From Candidatus Magasanikiibacteriota bacterium (GTDB taxonomy: Bacteria; Patescibacteriota; Patescibacteriia; Magasanikbacterales; GWA2-37-8), in the NCBI GenBank assembly GCA_026396515.1, contig JAPLWQ010000003.1, positions 357,569 to 393,986 on the forward strand: a stretch of DNA of 36,418 nucleotides, written 5' to 3'. The notes under the pieces are model-generated. The model searched no databases. It was not told the origin of the DNA and saw nothing but the letters and a program-made list of their open reading frames with translations. This document shows, piece by piece, positions 21,424 through 29,237 of this stretch (position 1 is the stretch's first letter; each line of letters opens with the position of its first letter). Both the position numbers and the translations under genes were made by a program.

Positions 21424-22371
21424 TTACTTAACTATTTCCACTTCCGGAACCAACTCTACTCCATATCTATTATATACTTTTTCTTTAACGGCTTCAACCA
21501 CGGCGATGATGTCGGCTTGTGTCGCGCCTCCGTAATTGACGATGAAATTCCCGTGTTCTTGAGAAACACCGGCTCCGCCAATTTGAAAACCCTTCAAACC
21601 TAATTCTTCAATCAGATAACCGGCGGGAATTGTCCCCCGCTCGCGATATTGCGCCGGCAGAAGGCCTGGCTCGCCCGGCCAATTCGCAAGTTTAATATTC
21701 TTAAAAAAACTGCCTGCCGAAGGAAGCGCGGGGTGACGGCCATGGCGGCCGGCTATATTATCACTGGTTAGCCTAAGGATTTCTTTTGCGTCTCCGGGCG
21801 AGAACTTAAATATTATACGTAATATTACTCCTCCATCTTTCTTAAAAATGCTGTTGCGGTAGCCAAAATCACATTCGTTTCTTTGTAACGATATTATTTC
21901 ACCGTCTTTCCAGATATAAACATCCTCTATACTCTGCGACGTGTCGCTACCCATGGCTCCGGCATTTCCGCGAACCGCGCCGCCGACTGTTCCCGGAATC
22001 CCGGCCGCCCACTCCATACCAGTAAGTGAATTTGCCGCCGCAGCGCTGACGAGTGATGAAAAACTTGCTCCCGAATCGCAAACAATTTTTCCACCTTGGC
22101 AATCCAATTTATTGGTCTCAACGGAAATTACAACCCCTTCAAAACCATTGTCCGACATAAGCACGTTTGATCCGCCGCCGAGAATAAAAAAAGGCACGCC
22201 TTCGCCGGATAAATAACTTAAAAGACCGACTAACTTATCATTGTCGTTCACAGAAACCAAATATTCAGCCGGTCCGCCGACTTGAATAGTGGTATGCTTT
22301 CGCATCGGCTCGTTTAGCCTGACGCGGCCGTATTTTTTCAGCTCTTTGTAAAGCTCATTCATACTTGCCAT
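21424..22371 (-). CDS. murB: UDP-N-acetylenolpyruvoylglucosamine reductase MurB
   Basis: FAD-binding PCMH domain (ILGGGSNVL, GIPGTVGGAVRGNAGA) and a MurB C-terminal domain (SAGSFFKN, GNFIVN). Confidence 0.85.
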   Translation of the reverse strand: MASMNELYKELKKYGRVRLNEPMRKHTTIQVGGPAEYLVSVNDNDKLVGLLSYLSGEGVPFFILGGGSNVLMSDNGFEGVVISVETNKLDCQGGKIVCDSGASFSSLVSAAAANSLTGMEWAAGIPGTVGGAVRGNAGAMGSDTSQSIEDVYIWKDGEIISLQRNECDFGYRNSIFKKDGGVILRIIFKFSPGDAKEILRLTSDNIAGRHGRHPALPSAGSFFKNIKLANWPGEPGLLPAQYRERGTIPAGYLIEELGLKGFQIGGAGVSQEHGNFIVNYGGATQADIIAVVEAVKEKVYNRYGVELVPEVEIVK

Positions 22372-22373
22372 TT

Positions 22374-22402
22374 TTGATATTTTGGGCTATGATTTATACA
22401 TT
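22374..22402 (+). promoter_or_regulatory. Candidate promoter TTGATA-N17-TACATT for the ATP-grasp::Nudix operon
   Basis: TTGATA at 22374-22379 and TACATT at 22397-22402. ATG 22416 is 13 nt downstream of the -10 box, so the mRNA is nearly leaderless. Confidence 0.5.
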
Positions 22403-22428
22403 ATATTGGAAAATTATGACGCTGGCAA
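22400..22428 (-). promoter_or_regulatory. sigma70 promoter TTGCCA-N17-TATAAT for the murB operon
   Basis: The minus strand reads TTGCCAgcgtcataattttccaaTATAAT. The -35 box is at 22428-22423 and the -10 box at 22405-22400. It lies inside the first codons of the divergent ATP-grasp gene. Confidence 0.6.
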
Positions 22429-24080
22429 ATAGCGCAAAAAACGCCCTGAAAAAGAAGCTTGGAACAAAGCGGCTTTTTTATGTCTGTCGCGATATTGAAC
22501 GCGCTGAAGCGTCGCTTCTACTCGGGCTAAATAACTTCTATATTATTTCCAATGACAGCTATTACGGCCGCCAACTGTCAAAAAAGAATCACCACATAAT
22601 ATTGATCAAAGAAAAAAGGATTTTGGACACGCGCGAACTTTTGACAAGCGCCGCGGCTAAAAAGATTATCAGGCGATTCGATAATATCATGGTCTTTAAA
22701 CCGACCGCTCAGATTGAAGAAACCTGCCGGGAACGCGGATGGAAACTGCTCAATCCACCCGCCGCTCTGGCCGGACAAGTGGAAGAAAAAATTTCGCAAG
22801 TTAAATGGCTGGGAAAGTTAAAAAAATATTTGCCGCTGGAAAAAATTGATATCTTAAAGAGTATCAAATGGAAAAGCCGCAAGTTTATTTTGCAGTTCAA
22901 TCGCGCTCATACCGGCAGCGGCACTATACTCATTGATTCAAGGGTAAAACTGGACAAATTGAAACAACAATTTCCCAGTCGCGAAGCCCGTGTTTCCCGC
23001 TTCGTTGACGGGCCCTGCTTCACGGTTAATTGCCTTGTTTGGGGTAAGCGAGTATTAGCCGGAAATATCAGTTATCAGATAACCGGACTTAAACCGTTTA
23101 CCGACAACCCATTTGCCACAATAGGCAACGATTGGACTCTGCCAAAAACTTTGCTTTCAAAAAAGCAAATTACTGAAATCAAAAAAATTGCTGACGAGGT
23201 GGGAAAAAAATTACGGGCCGATGATTGGCAAGGCCTGTTTGGTATAGACATTTCATTGGATAGCCGAACCGGACGAGTATATTTAATTGAAATTAATGCC
23301 AGACAACCGGCTTCTACAAGTTTTGAATCCATTCTGCAAAATGATGTGCACACAAAAAACGGAGCAACCATTATGGAGGCGCACTTGATGGCTCTGCTTA
23401 ACTGCCCGCCAAAAAAATTTCAACTGATAAAAATTTCTAACGGAGCGCAGCTGGTGCAGCGCGTGACTGCCGCAACACCGCATCTGACAGAGCCATATTT
23501 ATATAAACCGACAAAGTTCAAACATATTCGCTATGAGAACATTAAACCGGACAGTGATTTAATGAGGGTTCAGACGCGCTTCGGCATAATGGAAAGCCAT
23601 AACAATCTGAATGAACACGGAAATGAGCTGTCAATTTTTATCCGTTCCGGAAAAACAAAAAGGATTTTCAACGGACCTCGCGCCGGAATGATAATTATTA
23701 AGAATGGACGATTGCTTTGCATCGAAAGAGACCGTTTCGGCTACCACTACTTCACCCTACCGGGCGGCACTTTGGAAAATAGGGAGAAAGAGCAAGAAAC
23801 CGCTCGCCGCGAAATTCTGGAGGAAACCGGTTTAAAAATTGGCATTGATGTCACAAAAACACCTATAGTAGTAGAGGGGTCCCGTCATGAAACATATTTT
23901 TGGGCCGAAAAAGCAAAAGGCCGTGTACGATTAGGCGGCCCTGAAAGAGAGCGCAACACTAACGGTAACCACTATTCGCTAAAGTGGATAAAAATTTCAG
24001 ATATTAAAAAAATTAATCTTTTACCTTCGGAATTAAAAAAAGGTCTGATAAAAATATTTAGGAAATATGCTTTCGCCTAA
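22416..24080 (+). CDS. ATP-grasp ligase fused to a C-terminal Nudix hydrolase
   Basis: ATP-grasp core GLFGIDISLDSRTGRVYLIEINARQPAS. A perfect Nudix box G-x5-E-x7-REUXEEXGU (GTLENREKEQETARREILEETGL) lies at 23766-23834. I chose ATG 22416 because the ORF-track start at 22365 would overlap the murB start and the promoter. Confidence 0.8.
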   Translation: MTLANSAKNALKKKLGTKRLFYVCRDIERAEASLLLGLNNFYIISNDSYYGRQLSKKNHHIILIKEKRILDTRELLTSAAAKKIIRRFDNIMVFKPTAQIEETCRERGWKLLNPPAALAGQVEEKISQVKWLGKLKKYLPLEKIDILKSIKWKSRKFILQFNRAHTGSGTILIDSRVKLDKLKQQFPSREARVSRFVDGPCFTVNCLVWGKRVLAGNISYQITGLKPFTDNPFATIGNDWTLPKTLLSKKQITEIKKIADEVGKKLRADDWQGLFGIDISLDSRTGRVYLIEINARQPASTSFESILQNDVHTKNGATIMEAHLMALLNCPPKKFQLIKISNGAQLVQRVTAATPHLTEPYLYKPTKFKHIRYENIKPDSDLMRVQTRFGIMESHNNLNEHGNELSIFIRSGKTKRIFNGPRAGMIIIKNGRLLCIERDRFGYHYFTLPGGTLENREKEQETARREILEETGLKIGIDVTKTPIVVEGSRHETYFWAEKAKGRVRLGGPERERNTNGNHYSLKWIKISDIKKINLLPSELKKGLIKIFRKYAFA

Positions 24081-24882
24081 AGCTGAAAAATTAATTAACG
24101 ACTATTTTAACCTTCCTTTTGAAGGCCTGTCCGGAATACGCTGCCCGTATTTTAATAACACCAGGCGGCGCGCCCGCGGACAATTGCGGGGGTTGATAGG
24201 CAAGGGTACGCCTGAAGAAATAGTCGAGGAAGCAAAAATAATTTCTACACAATACCGGCATAATATTTTTGATAAGGACGGTTTTTGCTGTATTCACGCC
24301 GCTCACAGCGATGAAGAAAAAAATGATGACGTGAGAAAATTTTTAATTGACAACGACCTCGGCATTGATTGCTCGGGATTTATCAGCCAGGCGCTCATTG
24401 CTCATTATAAGGAAACAAAAAATATTAATATTGCTAAAAATTTTTATTTTTGGCCTTTAAAAAATTTTTGGCGACGACTGGTTGCACGGCTCCGTCCGGT
24501 TGAAAACATGTCGGTGAGCGTGATAGCAAAAGATGAAAATTCGTTAAAAATTGCCGACGGACGGGAAACGTATGACTGGTCAAAATTGCAGCCAGCCGAC
24601 CTTATATTTATGATGGAAACAGGACCGAACAAAAAGCGAAATCATATTTTAATTATTGAAGATAACGAAGGCTCAATAATTAAATATGCCCACTCCCGGG
24701 CCTGGTCGTCTGACGGTAAGTACGGGCACGGCGTGGCTCGCGGAGTTATACGAATAACCAAATTGGCCGGCAATATGCTGGACCAAACTTGGGAAGAGCA
24801 AGGAAAAACAAATGATGAAAATGAAACTTATCGCGAAGCCAGTGAGGCGAAAATATTTGAAGTCCGACGTATAAAAATTTAA
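24067..24882 (+). CDS. NlpC/P60-family cysteine peptidase/amidase without a signal peptide
   Basis: Catalytic Cys motif GIDCSGFISQAL. Downstream PADLIFM...NHILII...YAHS matches the His and polar residues of the papain-like NlpC/P60 triad. It overlaps the upstream gene by 14 nt. Confidence 0.7.
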   Translation: MLSPKAEKLINDYFNLPFEGLSGIRCPYFNNTRRRARGQLRGLIGKGTPEEIVEEAKIISTQYRHNIFDKDGFCCIHAAHSDEEKNDDVRKFLIDNDLGIDCSGFISQALIAHYKETKNINIAKNFYFWPLKNFWRRLVARLRPVENMSVSVIAKDENSLKIADGRETYDWSKLQPADLIFMMETGPNKKRNHILIIEDNEGSIIKYAHSRAWSSDGKYGHGVARGVIRITKLAGNMLDQTWEEQGKTNDENETYREASEAKIFEVRRIKI

Positions 24883-24891
24883 CATTCATCT

Positions 24892-26031
24892 ATGCAGATA
24901 ATGTCGTGCGAACCATTTTCACCCCAGCTTCTGGAACAGGCGCTGTTATATTTAATTTGCGCGACAATCGGCGCCTTTGTTTTAGCCCCTCTTTTAACAA
25001 AATTTTTATACAAATTCAATATTACGCGCCGCGGAGAATATGATTTTACTTTGCGCGGATCCGAACGGTCGCAAAAAATTGGCACGCCAATAATGGGCGG
25101 CATTTTGGTAATAATTACTGTTACAATAATCACATTATTATTTAATTGGGAACGAAGTTATACTTATGTGCCAATCGGCGTGATGGCAATATCGGCGCTG
25201 CTTGGAGCAGCAGACGATCTTCTGAATATCTTTGGCGCAAAACGGCGCGAACGCAGCTTAAAGAATACCTGGCTTTTGGTTAAAGTTCACAGAATTTGGT
25301 ATATGCGCGTGCTTCACGCCTTGAGTCTGCCTTGGGTGGCATTCCGGCAATTTACTTCGGCTCTCGGCTCGCACCCGGGCCGTGGCATTCAAGTACACGA
25401 AAAACTATTAATGCAATTCATTGCAGGCGCCGTGACGGCCTGGTGGATATACTTTAAACTCGGTGAAAACTGGCGTTCGCTCTGGCTGCCGTTCGATGGG
25501 GAAGTTTCTTTAAGCTGGTGGATTATCCCACTGGTTATTTTACTTGTAATGTTTACGGCAAATGCTGTAAATATCGCTGACGGCCTGGACGGCCTGGCCG
25601 GCGGCGCGCTGATTATGACTTTTTCCGGGCTAACCGCAATAAGCTGGATAGAAGGGCGCGTAGCTTTTACTCTTCTCAATGCTACGGCGGTTGGCGCGCT
25701 CATTGCTTACACTTATTTCAATATTAAACCGGCCCGCTTTCAAATGGGCGACGTGGGCACGCTGGGGCTGGGGGCGCTTTTCGCAATCAACGCCATTGCC
25801 GTGAATAAAACAATTCTCATTCCCCTGCTGGGTTTTATTTTTTATGTGGAAGCGATTTCCGTGATAATCCAAGTATTTTACCGCCGTCTGCTCGGCCGCC
25901 GCTTTTTCAAAATGGCTCCTCTGCACCATCACTTTGAATTCCACGGCTGGAGCGAAGAAAAAATCGTTATGCGCTTTTGGCTGATTCATCTGTTTTTCGT
26001 GGTTGTGGCAGTGTGGCTATCCCTGCATTAA
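24892..26031 (+). CDS. mraY: Phospho-N-acetylmuramoyl-pentapeptide transferase MraY
   Basis: Motifs NAVNIADGLDGLA, MGDVGTLGLGA and APLHHHFE, with about 10 TM segments. Confidence 0.9.
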   Translation: MQIMSCEPFSPQLLEQALLYLICATIGAFVLAPLLTKFLYKFNITRRGEYDFTLRGSERSQKIGTPIMGGILVIITVTIITLLFNWERSYTYVPIGVMAISALLGAADDLLNIFGAKRRERSLKNTWLLVKVHRIWYMRVLHALSLPWVAFRQFTSALGSHPGRGIQVHEKLLMQFIAGAVTAWWIYFKLGENWRSLWLPFDGEVSLSWWIIPLVILLVMFTANAVNIADGLDGLAGGALIMTFSGLTAISWIEGRVAFTLLNATAVGALIAYTYFNIKPARFQMGDVGTLGLGALFAINAIAVNKTILIPLLGFIFYVEAISVIIQVFYRRLLGRRFFKMAPLHHHFEFHGWSEEKIVMRFWLIHLFFVVVAVWLSLH

Positions 26032-26071: not shown

Positions 26072-26746
26072 ATGGACGGATACTTATCCTGGGATGACAA
26101 TACAATTACTGATTTCTCCGAAGCGAATGTGAGCGCAATGTATGAACGCGGTTTTGTTTTTACCCGACTTGGCAAAGGACAGATGACGCAAACAAGAAGC
26201 GTGCGGGTGGATTTGAGCAAATTTGAACTCAACAGTGAAAACCGCCGTATTTTACGCAAGGTGGATAATATTGAACTTAATATTGAAACACTCCCCCATC
26301 CAAATTATGATTGGCGCATACACAAGCTCGGTTTTGATTTCTATACCGCAAAATTCGGCCCAAAAACTTTTTCCGCCAATAAAATCAAAGAGCTTTTAAC
26401 AAGCAACGAAAGCAATTACAACAAATTATTCGTTTATCAATTTAATAACGCGCCGGTCGGTTATTGCATTTGTTTTGAGAATAACAATTGGCTTCATTAT
26501 GGTTATCCTTTTTATGACTTGAACTCTAAAATCGATAATCTTGGCATCGGTATGATGACAAAAGCGATCGCTTGGGCTAAAGAAAACAGTAAAAAATATG
26601 TCTGTCTGGGCAGCGCCCAAAACCCATCCGCAGTTTATAAACTGCAATTTGCCGGCGTGGAATGGTTCGACGGGCAAACCTGGCGTTCTGATGCGGAAGA
26701 ATTAAAAAAGATTCTATTAACCGGATCCCCGCTTGCGCGAGGATGA
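26072..26746 (+). CDS. ATE/Bpt-family (arginyl- or leucyl-tRNA--protein transferase-like) GNAT-fold protein
   Basis: The C-terminal half VGYCICFENNNWLHYGYPFYDLNSKIDNLGIGMMTKAIAWAKENSKKYVCLGSAQNPSAVYKLQFAGVEWFDGQTW follows the ATE_C pattern (..Y.FYDP...SLG...L..I..A......Y.YLGY......K..YK..F.P.E.....W). The N-terminal GFVFTRLG...RVDLSKFELNSENRRILRK matches ATE_N but lacks the Cys residues. I chose ATG 26072 because the ORF-track start at 26003 overlaps mraY. Confidence 0.65.
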   Translation: MDGYLSWDDNTITDFSEANVSAMYERGFVFTRLGKGQMTQTRSVRVDLSKFELNSENRRILRKVDNIELNIETLPHPNYDWRIHKLGFDFYTAKFGPKTFSANKIKELLTSNESNYNKLFVYQFNNAPVGYCICFENNNWLHYGYPFYDLNSKIDNLGIGMMTKAIAWAKENSKKYVCLGSAQNPSAVYKLQFAGVEWFDGQTWRSDAEELKKILLTGSPLARG

Positions 26747-28131
26747 CACGGAATATTATGAGACATATTCACTTCATCGGAATCTGCGGCGTCGGTATGA
26801 GCGCCCTCGCGATTCTTTGGAAAAAGATGGGTTGGAAAGTAACCGGTTCTGACGCCGGATTTTATCCGCCTATATCCACCCATTTGGATCAAAACCAAAT
26901 CGATTTTTACGCCGGCTGGCATCCTGAAAAAATTGGCACGCCGGATTTGGTTGTGGTCGGCAATGTCGCCGGGTCGGAAAATCCGGAATGGCTATTCGTA
27001 CAGGAGCATAATATTAAGCACATTTCATACCCGGAATTAATCGGACAAAATTTGGTAAGGAAAAATTCAATTGTCTGCGCCGGCACCTGGGGCAAGACTT
27101 CTACCACCGCTTTACTTTCATACATTTTAACCCGGGCGGACTACAAACCCGCCTATATGTTTGGCGGTCTCTCCCTTAGCCTGCCATATGCGGCTGACGA
27201 TTTGGGCGGCGATTGGAGTGTGCTTGAAGGCGATGAATACAAAACCGGCAAAGACAACCCCATGGCAAAATTCTTTTCATATAAACCGACTTATTTGCTT
27301 CTTACCGGTCTTGAGTGGGATCACTTCGATATGTATCCGACGGAAGAATCATATTATGGCGCCTTTAAAAAGCTGATGAAATTATTGCCGGAAAACGGAC
27401 TGGTGCTCGCTTGCACCAACAGCGAAAACATTGAACGCGTACTTCCTGAAACGAACGCAAAGGTAATCAGATACGGAACCGATAACGCAGACTACATATT
27501 TAGCGAAGTGACATGCGGAAAAGACGGAATTTCTTTTAAAATTTCCAGCGGCGGAGCGACAAATGAAATTAAATCGCCAATGCTTGGCGATTATATGGCT
27601 GAAAATATCTGCGGAGCTTTCGCCATGGCGAGCGAAATCGGGGTTGCCAAAGGTACAATTATTGACGCCATCGGAAGCTTTGGCGGAATTAAGCGCCGGT
27701 TGGAAAATCGCGGCAAGACAGCGGAAGGCGCAACAATATTTGACGACATCGCCCACTCACCAATTAAAGCGCGCTCAGTTCTGCAAACGCTAAGAAATAT
27801 TTACAGCGGAAAAATTATCGCAGTTTTCGAACCAAATACCGGCAATCGCCAGGTTTCATCCGCGCCGGGTTATGACAGCAGTTTTTTAAATGCGGACATT
27901 GTCGTAATTCCCCGTCTGACAAAAATAAAAATCGACGAAAAAACCAATGATACGGTTATGGACGGCCAAATGCTAGCAGACATCATTGCGCGAACGCATA
28001 AAACTGTGAAACTTATTAGTGATGACGCACAACTTGTGAAATATTTAAAAACCGCAGCCGGTCCTGAAGACGCAATCGTCTTTTTGGGCAGCCACGGTTT
28101 CAGGGGTATGATTGAGAGCCTGATTGATTAG
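26743..28131 (+). CDS. Mur ligase of the MurC/Mpl branch, Mpl-like (UDP-MurNAc:peptide ligase)
   Basis: HFIGICGVGMSALA, VTGSDAGFYPPISTHL (E. coli Mpl has YPPMST), P-loop GTWGKTSTTA. The start overlaps the upstream stop as ATGA. Confidence 0.75.
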   Translation: MTRNIMRHIHFIGICGVGMSALAILWKKMGWKVTGSDAGFYPPISTHLDQNQIDFYAGWHPEKIGTPDLVVVGNVAGSENPEWLFVQEHNIKHISYPELIGQNLVRKNSIVCAGTWGKTSTTALLSYILTRADYKPAYMFGGLSLSLPYAADDLGGDWSVLEGDEYKTGKDNPMAKFFSYKPTYLLLTGLEWDHFDMYPTEESYYGAFKKLMKLLPENGLVLACTNSENIERVLPETNAKVIRYGTDNADYIFSEVTCGKDGISFKISSGGATNEIKSPMLGDYMAENICGAFAMASEIGVAKGTIIDAIGSFGGIKRRLENRGKTAEGATIFDDIAHSPIKARSVLQTLRNIYSGKIIAVFEPNTGNRQVSSAPGYDSSFLNADIVVIPRLTKIKIDEKTNDTVMDGQMLADIIARTHKTVKLISDDAQLVKYLKTAAGPEDAIVFLGSHGFRGMIESLID

Positions 28132-28293
28132 CTATTTTCCTTCATCAACCACTTCGGCAACGTAGTTTTCTCCGACTTCTTTAACGTTAAGAGTAATTCC
28201 GCAGTGGTTGCATTCAATGATATGGCCATCAGCCAGATCAGGATAGTTAGTCAAATCGATTTCATTCTTACACTCAGGGCAAATGAGTTTCAT
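28132..28293 (-). CDS. 53-aa zinc-ribbon protein of the LysW/ArgW carrier-protein type, without the terminal Glu
   Basis: Manual translation: MKLICPECKNEIDLTNYPDLADGHIIECNHCGITLNVKEVGENYVAEVVDEGK. The CPxC...CxxCG ribbon and acidic tail match the LysW architecture. It is below the ORF-track size cut-off. It has its own TTGACA-N17-TATTAT promoter. Its stop codon abuts the stop codon of the convergent Mur ligase gene. Confidence 0.6.
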   Translation of the reverse strand: MKLICPECKNEIDLTNYPDLADGHIIECNHCGITLNVKEVGENYVAEVVDEGK

Positions 28294-28324: not shown

Positions 28325-28353
28325 ATAATACTACATTTATAATAATTTGTCAA
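28325..28353 (-). promoter_or_regulatory. sigma70 promoter TTGACA-N17-TATTAT for the LysW-like gene
   Basis: The minus strand reads TTGACAaattattataaatgtagTATTAT. The -35 box is at 28353-28348 and the -10 box at 28330-28325. It lies 31 nt upstream of ATG 28293. Confidence 0.6.
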
Positions 28354-28358
28354 CCGTT

Positions 28359-29237
28359 ATGGTTACGCCGCAAATAAAAGCCGAAGAACTTGCACAAGCC
28401 ATCGGTTTGGAAGGAGATCTGTATTTAAAGCGCGAAGATCTTCACCCCTACGGCTCGCATAAAGGCCGTTCAATTCCAAAAATGCTTTCTAAATATGCAG
28501 CCGAAGGATGGAAGAGTTTTGTGATTTCATCTTCCGGCAACGCCGCTCTCGCGGCGGCGATTGTCGTAAAAAAATTGAATCTGGAATTGTCCAATAAAAT
28601 TTTACTGGCCATTTATGTGGGGAAGGATATTAATAATGAAAAATTTGACAGAATTAGTATAGCAATAAAAGACGAAAAAAATATTTCTATTAAACAGGTG
28701 ACGCACCCGAAACACGAGGCATTTTTAGAGGATAAACTCGGCAAAGCAAAAAATTTGCGCCAGTCCACAGATGATATGGCGTTAAAAGGATATGAAGAGT
28801 TGGCCGGTGAACTCGGGGAAATAAAAAAAATATGCGCAATATTTATTCCCACTTCAAGCGGTACAACCGCGCAGGGACTCTATTTGGGCTTTGAGAATCT
28901 TGGCTTGCACCCGCAGATTCATATTGCTCAAACCGATGAATGTCATCCGATAGCGGACGCTTCAGTGCCTTCATCGGGGTCTGCTTCACTGGCCGACGCG
29001 ATTGTCGATAAAATCGGGCATCGAAAAAATGCCATAAACGATCTCATGAAAAAAAGTAATGGCCGGGGATGGATTATATCTAACGAAGAGATACTGGACG
29101 CAATCACATTGGTGAAAAGAACGGAAAATTTGGATATTTCTCCGAACAGCGCTTTGTCTGTGGCCGGATTAAAAAAAGCCGTACAAAACGGCTATTCATT
29201 CGACGGCCCTGTTGTCTGTCTGATTACCGGACTTTAA
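28359..29237 (+). CDS. PLP-dependent fold-type II enzyme (threonine synthase/cysteine synthase superfamily)
   Basis: KREDLHPYGSHKGR contains the PLP-lysine motif (K.E..NP.GS.K.R). SSGNAA and PTSSGTT loops are present. I chose ATG 28359 because the TTG at 28347 overlaps the divergent -35 box. Confidence 0.65.
   Translation: MVTPQIKAEELAQAIGLEGDLYLKREDLHPYGSHKGRSIPKMLSKYAAEGWKSFVISSSGNAALAAAIVVKKLNLELSNKILLAIYVGKDINNEKFDRISIAIKDEKNISIKQVTHPKHEAFLEDKLGKAKNLRQSTDDMALKGYEELAGELGEIKKICAIFIPTSSGTTAQGLYLGFENLGLHPQIHIAQTDECHPIADASVPSSGSASLADAIVDKIGHRKNAINDLMKKSNGRGWIISNEEILDAITLVKRTENLDISPNSALSVAGLKKAVQNGYSFDGPVVCLITGL

Follow-up and report, generated by a model that had tools for sequence, protein, structure and literature searches.

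An ATE/Bpt-fold transferase-like protein and an Mpl-type ligase in Patescibacteria without MurC and MurD

Here, we describe a conserved gene module of Patescibacteria in which a protein with the fold of ATE/Bpt aminoacyl-tRNA transferases, P0001, is paired with an Mpl-type Mur ligase. The MurC-MurD-MurE-MurF series is treated as near-universal in peptidoglycan-making bacteria and is an antibiotic target. Complete genomes without MurC, MurD and glutamate racemase carry the conserved module of ATE-family transferase and Mpl-type ligase instead, and this pattern points to an undescribed way of starting the peptidoglycan peptide in some ultra-small CPR bacteria. We give about an even chance to the reading that P0001 is an ATE/Bpt-lineage, aminoacyl-tRNA-dependent transferase that starts the stem peptide, and that it replaces MurC and MurD as a pair with the ligase. 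A literature search found no paper describing the module. The window, the whole stretch of 36,418 nucleotides that was analysed (G000:C5:357569-393986), belongs to a 966-kb genome in five contigs that was scored 100% complete.

Fold and sequence of P0001

The preliminary description placed an open reading frame directly after mraY with an ATGA overlap to a Mur ligase gene, and this gene is real. As shown in Table 1, it lies within a series of cell-wall genes; 40 nt separate the end of mraY (26031) from its start, its stop codon overlaps the ATG of the ligase gene at 26743, and its start Met is common to homologues of about 215 aa. The close homologues of P0001 bear the names Patescibacteria or Candidatus Magasanikbacteria, and one relative is named "GNAT family N-acetyltransferase" at NCBI.

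Table 1. Features of the module and its surroundings in the window
Feature	Coordinates	Strand	Remarks
MurB	21424..22371	-	divergent from the module; syntenic
ATP-grasp ligase fused to a Nudix domain	22365..24080	+	syntenic in 12/15 loci
Divergent cytoplasmic NlpC/P60/CHAP-like Cys peptidase	24067..24882	+	invariant C102, H193, H209
MraY (phospho-MurNAc-pentapeptide translocase)	24892..26031	+	TIGR00445, 190.7 bits; syntenic
P0001, ATE/Bpt-fold Cys-less aminoacyl-tRNA-transferase-like protein	26072..26746	+	224 aa; ATG 26072 to TGA 26746
Mpl-type (murein-peptide-ligase-like) Mur ligase	26743..28131	+	all three Mur-ligase domains; only MurC-like gene of the genome
LysW-like zinc-ribbon carrier	28132..28293	-	53 aa, tail ...VVDEGK; Zn_ribbon_LysW PF21344, 34.6 bits vs cut-off 27
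Fold-type-II PLP enzyme, ThrC-like	28347..29237	+	17/18 carriers, 0/18 relatives

An AlphaFold2 model of P0001 was obtained with a pLDDT of 95.9, and the best Foldseek match to this model was human ATE1 (E 2.5e-9, TM 0.70), followed by FemX, Sba18/Sbb17, MprF C-domains, yeast ATE1 and L/F-transferase. The preliminary description had stated that ATE, L/F-transferase and Fem enzymes share one fold, and all three are indeed among the structural matches. With VIA-align, human ATE1 (8tzv_A) aligned to 221 of the 224 residues with a Z of 17.1 and K. lactis Ate1 (7wg1, chain residues 21-338) to about 215-216 residues with a Z of 14.7, while the MprF C-domain covered about 180 residues (Z 14-15) and FemX 170-183 residues (Z 12.3-12.8). 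The top structural matches of the predicted model are all aminoacyl-tRNA transferases. A profile search of PDB sequences did not reach ATE1 and gave only weak matches to GNAT acetyltransferases over the LGxG helix; the link between P0001 and ATE1 is therefore based on fold similarity and on signals from Pfam and NCBIfam.

Among these signals, Pfam ATE_C (PF04377) aligned to residues 120-198 of P0001 with 21.8 bits, under the cut-off of 25; relatives of P0001 reach 30-31 bits, above the cut-off, and many carry a precomputed PF04377 assignment. The NCBIfam bpt/arginyltransferase models aligned to residues 40-206 with an E of 1e-10, and the best score of 41.5 bits did not reach the bpt equivalog cut-off of 170. 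Neither ATE_N (PF04376) nor FemAB (PF02388) gave a Pfam match in P0001. The fold of the N-lobe is kept in the VIA-align comparison despite the missing ATE_N match. The claim that P0001 follows the ATE_N/ATE_C pattern is supported by the whole-fold match to ATE1; the ATE_C signal stays under the cut-off, and ATE_N was not detected. The N-terminal Cys residues are missing, as had been noted before; no Cys is found before residue 132.

In 41 relatives of P0001, Y189-K190 is invariant and lies inside the stretch aligned to ATE_C. R45, R59 and W204 are likewise invariant in these relatives and the SSENRR block is nearly so. The acidic-pocket Arg of ATE_N is R80 in K. lactis Ate1, and the GWRRSG-like stretch appears changed in P0001. 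The Tyr303-Lys304 pair of K. lactis Ate1 is essential, its Lys304 being the catalytic residue that matches Lys305 of FemX (PMC9351520). Equated by motif and by means of this published work, Y189-K190 is the predicted counterpart of Y303-K304 of K. lactis Ate1. The acceptor of ATE1 and Bpt is an N-terminal acidic residue (PMC9351520). For a residue-level alignment with a true Bpt, 61 Bacteroidota genomes were searched, and ATE_N was not found in them.

The gene module and its ligase

About 1,340 proteins in a set of 5.8 billion sequences match P0001, as do 300 representative clusters. Among 401 evenly sampled Patescibacteria genomes, 18 have the ATE-like family, a count that overstates independence, as the carriers are related genomes of about five family-level lineages. 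The carriers include all genomes of two families of the window's order, f1 (5/5) and f2 (3/3), and members of f46, f55, f70 and f144. The ATE-like family was not found in the one other family of the window's order, nor in another 15 genomes of the class. A Cytophagia MAG has a distantly related ATE-like gene without the Cys residues (L019:7929-8795, from the single-protein query P0246), where its neighbours are a HaeIII-type restriction-modification pair and ABC exporters and no cell-wall genes are nearby.

In 14 of the 15 loci inspected, which cover five families, the ATE-like gene adjoins the ligase gene; the exception is G385, in which the parts of the module are scattered. The gene order differs between lineages. 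In f1 and f2, a divergent murB is followed by the genes for ATP-grasp, NlpC/P60-like protein, MraY, ATE-like protein, ligase and PLP enzyme, and in f46 and f70 the order is murE, ATE-like, ligase, NlpC/P60-like, mraY, PLP enzyme and ATP-grasp. Six natural fusions of the ATE-like protein with the ligase were found, one as a single 688-aa protein of G308 and five as public-database proteins of 658-747 aa, of which one comes from a Candidatus Taylorbacteria MAG. The genome G056 holds the ATE-like/ligase pair alone of the module, between murG and murB in the usual place of murC within the dcw cluster; its murD slot, between mraY and ftsW, is empty, and MurC, MurD, the module ATP-grasp and the carrier are all absent. 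Other C-terminal extensions of ATE-like proteins were also observed: P0281 and P0282 have a region of several predicted transmembrane helices, and P0283 and P0286 have other domains of unassigned kind.

We class the module ligase as Mpl-type from its sequence. In phmmer comparisons, the window ligase scored 190 bits against E. coli Mpl, 117 against E. coli MurC and 80-184 against MurC of CPR bacteria, and its best PDB match was P. arcticus Mpl (3hn7), followed by MurC (6cau) and Mpl (3eag). An insertion of 7-10 residues after DEY is present in all 16 module ligases and in E. coli Mpl and absent in 10 MurC sequences, for example DEYKTARWDNRPKF..Y.P in module ligases and DEYDCAFFDKRSKFVHYCP in E. 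coli Mpl. The segment after DEY and its Tyr have been described as Mpl-specific by Das et al. (PMC3060825). Most module ligases also have a GICG loop like that of E. coli Mpl. Maximum-likelihood analysis placed the module ligases in one clade (99/97) with E. coli Mpl as its sister (100/100); E. coli Mpl is the single Mpl reference in the tree and sits on a long branch. The ligase did not reach the Mpl equivalog TIGR01081 (234.7 bits vs a cut-off of 388.7), nor did it reach the murC model (246.1 bits vs 335.1).

Four further genes are characteristic of the carriers and not of their relatives, namely those for the NlpC/P60-like peptidase, the LysW-like carrier, the ThrC-like PLP enzyme and, in most cases, the ATP-grasp ligase. 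The NlpC/P60-like protein was found in 16 of 18 carriers and in none of 18 relatives; its predicted structure (pLDDT 87) gave weak fold matches, with an E of about 2e-3, to MepS, CwlO, Gsp amidase and YkfC, and in f70 the NlpC/P60-like domain is fused to the C-terminus of the ligase. Seventeen of the 18 carrier genomes have the LysW-like carrier, and the 18 relatives gave one weak match. All 17 carrier-protein tails end in Lys (...VVDEGK, ...DYLxV(E/Q)K or ...IEEEK), and the classical EDWGE tail of LysW with its attachment Glu was found in none of the 17 copies. Besides that of the window, these LysW-like copies include L004:7353-7517, L016:5701-5865 and L032:13151-13318, and a copy in G219 (L035) has lost the Cys ligands and kept the tail. 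The fusion of ATP-grasp and Nudix domains was observed in the window and in G192 (547-571 aa); most relatives of this protein are Nudix-less (about 390-450 aa).

Mur enzymes of the carrier genomes

The murD cut-off was passed by 300 of the 401 Patescibacteria genomes, that is, by 300 of 383 non-carriers and by none of the 18 carriers; this tally includes one unpublished genome, G154, a non-carrier with MurD that enters into none of the other results. In the carriers, the murD model gave only cross-hits (E 1e-15 to 1e-26). The Mur-ligase genes of the window's genome are limited to three, those for MurE, MurF and the module ligase, and the last of these is also the best murD match of the genome, with 75 bits.

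The following features were compared between the 18 carriers and 18 relatives. Canonical MurC above the cut-off of 335 was found in none of the carriers and in 15 relatives, 13 of which score 359-487 bits in one piece and two more with split matches summed. Each carrier has one MurC-like gene below the threshold, the module ligase, which scored 196-304 bits against the MurC model in 15 carriers, lower in G249 and under the reporting threshold in G039. The racemase family Asp_Glu_race (MurI) was found in 1/18 carriers and 14/18 relatives, and Alr in 5/18 and 13/18, respectively. MurB, MurE, MurF, MraY, FtsW, MurG and PBPs are kept in a set of complete carrier genomes. Two genomes of the same class without the module also have gaps, G386 being without MurD and MurE and G267 without MurD and MurC; the class thus also shows other deviations from the usual set of Mur enzymes.

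MurE has the same N-terminal truncation in both groups. Throughout the class (L002:5974-7269) it begins at about model position 60-80 and is without the usual N-terminal UDP-binding domain. We rejected the idea that the truncated MurE acts on free peptides, since the truncation is common to genomes with and without the module. Ddl is patchy in carriers and relatives alike. In the window's genome, MurF and Alr are present and Ddl (PF07478) was not found, and in f46 and f70 Alr, Ddl and MurI are all absent. The proposal that the ATP-grasp ligase is the missing Ddl was unsupported, given this patchiness in both groups and the several carriers that have both genes.

ClpS (PF02617) was found in 0/18 carriers and 0/18 relatives, and hence in none of 36 genomes, the complete genome of the window included. 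Together with the ligase as a neighbour in nearly all loci, this result bears out the earlier view that P0001 is tied to cell-wall genes and not to an N-degron pathway. ClpP is present in the window's genome, and the match (G000:C1:8211-8744) holds one in-frame TAA within the matched frame. A FemAB gene separate from P0001 is found in the same genome at C1:154186-155118. No dedicated extra tRNA was found there among 46 tRNAs, of which only the Met anticodon is duplicated. A tRNA-Ile(UAU) is present along with only two tRNA(CAU) genes, which suggests that this genome does not use a lysidine tRNA to read AUA.

Proposed start of the stem peptide and its alternatives

Two peptide bonds, MurNAc-Ala and Ala-Glu, have no assigned enzyme in the carriers, and two enzymes are always present, the Mpl-type ligase and the aminoacyl-tRNA-type transferase. 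A transferase of this type requires an acceptor amine, which UDP-MurNAc and UDP-MurNAc-L-Ala do not have; P0001 could therefore not work in the direction of MurC and MurD, but it could extend D-Glu or a gamma-D-Glu peptide N-terminally. ATE1 and Bpt take N-terminal acidic residues as acceptors, and recognition of an amine next to a carboxylate is already found in their lineage; the Glu amine would be a small step from there. The strict co-occurrence with the ligase, the loss of MurC, MurD and MurI, and the fusions place P0001 at stem positions 1-2, before attachment to UDP-MurNAc. In the mechanism that we propose, P0001 would move the position-1 residue, most likely L-Ala, from tRNA to the free alpha-amine of D-Glu, which may be unbound, may be the first residue of a gamma-D-Glu peptide or may sit on the LysW-like carrier. 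The Mpl-type ligase would join the resulting L-Ala-D-Glu(-X) peptide to UDP-MurNAc, and MurE, MurF and MraY would then proceed as usual; that MurE is retained argues for a dipeptide as the ligase substrate. What we infer here is that tRNA serves as the donor, which donor and acceptor are used and in what order the steps run. The ATP-grasp ligase could instead form the L-Ala-D-Glu bond or add D-Glu. The D-Glu itself could arise on the LysW-like carrier through the ATP-grasp ligase and the PLP enzyme, with release by the peptidase, or it could come from wall peptides of the host. As many carriers are also without Alr and Ddl, they may salvage host peptides wholesale, a possibility that weighs against the proposed role of P0001.

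A more elaborate scheme of five steps, which as a whole we consider rather unlikely, would assemble the first two stem residues on a carrier protein and so replace MurI, MurC and MurD. The ATP-grasp ligase would attach Glu to the LysW-like carrier by a bond between the Glu gamma-carboxyl and the C-terminal Lys, the PLP enzyme would epimerise the tethered Glu to D-Glu, and the ATE-like enzyme would add L-Ala from Ala-tRNA to the exposed amine; the NlpC/P60-like peptidase would then free L-Ala-D-Glu, and the Mpl-type ligase would couple it to UDP-MurNAc.

The preliminary description suggested a Fem-like enzyme that adds an amino acid to a peptidoglycan precursor. On this reading, the epsilon-amine of Lys or DAP in UDP-MurNAc-pentapeptide or lipid II would receive the residue from aminoacyl-tRNA, and other module members, for example the ATP-grasp ligase, would cover the missing MurD step. 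FemX shares the fold, the P0001 gene adjoins mraY, and a multi-TM anchor like that of P0281 and P0282 is expected for an enzyme working at the membrane. However, a FemAB-family gene is already in the genome, the repeated fusion partner is the ligase and not MurF or MraY, the co-occurrence with the Mpl-type ligase and with the loss of MurC, MurD and MurI is strict, and G056 has only the pair, without MurC, MurD and the module ATP-grasp. Side-chain addition of this kind is therefore not the best fit, and we regard it as unlikely. The G056 locus also bears on whether P0001 loads the carrier, that is, whether it moves an amino acid such as Glu from tRNA to the epsilon-amine of the C-terminal Lys of the LysW-like protein, with the PLP enzyme, the ATP-grasp ligase and the peptidase acting on the tethered residue. 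Lys is always the last residue of the carrier, its epsilon-amine is the target of FemX-type chemistry, proteins are the substrates of ATE/Bpt enzymes, and carrier and ATE-like family occur together in 17 of 18 genomes; yet the carrier is absent from G056, where the ATE-like gene and the ligase are both present, and the fusions join the ligase and not the carrier. In addition, the grouping of ATE-like, ligase and P60 genes apart from carrier, PLP and ATP-grasp genes in f46 and f70 fits a late step better than loading, and we find a loading role quite improbable.

An ordinary GNAT acyltransferase, modifying a precursor amine with acyl-CoA or another non-tRNA donor, would agree with the NCBI name of one relative and with the weak PDB-sequence matches to GNAT acetyltransferases over the LGxG helix. 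This is very unlikely in our judgement, as the top structural matches are all tRNA-dependent transferases, the match to ATE1 is full-length, and the Tyr-Lys motif typical of ATE and Fem enzymes is invariant. An N-degron transferase of the Bpt type, tagging proteins with N-terminal Asp or Glu for ClpS/ClpAP, was already disfavoured. Although the bpt models match with an E of 1e-10 and ClpP is present, ClpS is in none of the 36 genomes, the score of P0001 is 41.5 bits against the bpt cut-off of 170, the Cys motif of ATE_N is absent, and the cell-wall synteny and ligase fusions are constant; we attach hardly any probability to this role.

Compared with known systems, P0001 resembles ATE1 and Bpt in its two-lobed fold over the whole length, a sub-threshold ATE_C signal, the Tyr-Lys motif and an F..SSENRR block that follows the ATE_N pattern, and its proposed acceptor, an amine beside a carboxylate, would be similar to N-terminal Asp or Glu. 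It differs from them in having no Cys cluster, no ATE_N match and no ClpS in its genomes, in falling under all curated cut-offs, and in the constant cell-wall setting of its family with fusions to an Mpl-type ligase; D-Glu, a small peptide or a carrier would be the acceptor, and not the N-terminus of a protein bound for degradation. With FemX, FemABX and MurM it shares the GNAT-type fold of aminoacyl-tRNA transferases, the catalytic Lys and the setting in peptidoglycan precursor synthesis, but it is structurally nearer to ATE1, has no FemAB Pfam match, and its context is that of stem positions 1-2 before UDP-MurNAc instead of the position-3 branch. As in recycling by Mpl, the murein tripeptide ligase of Gram-negative bacteria, the module ligase would attach a preformed peptide to UDP-MurNAc. 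Unlike Mpl, it is the only MurC-like enzyme and so presumably essential rather than accessory, it is paired with a tRNA-dependent transferase, and the kept MurE suggests a dipeptide substrate.

The zinc-ribbon carrier, the ATP-grasp ligase and the PLP enzyme of the module have counterparts in the LysW/ArgW systems, whereas the carrier tail has Lys in place of the EDWGE Glu, homologues of LysZ, LysY and LysK were not seen, and by HMM the ATP-grasp ligase falls outside the RimK/LysX type. The tRNA-dependent peptide synthases Sba18/Sbb17, which are among the fold matches of P0001, also extend the amine of a small-molecule peptide. PacB of pacidamycin biosynthesis is likewise aminoacyl-tRNA-dependent and extends a small-molecule peptide amine. 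In contrast to P0001, PacB and Sba18/Sbb17 act in secondary metabolism and belong to a Fem-like and not an ATE-like lineage.

If the proposed chemistry is right, the ATE/Bpt lineage would be seen for the first time in a role other than protein degradation signalling, the main chain of the stem peptide would have its first tRNA-dependent step, and a LysW-type carrier would have a new use. The parts of the module are all small soluble proteins and can be tested in E. coli. The finding also bears on how host-dependent CPR bacteria get their D-amino acids.
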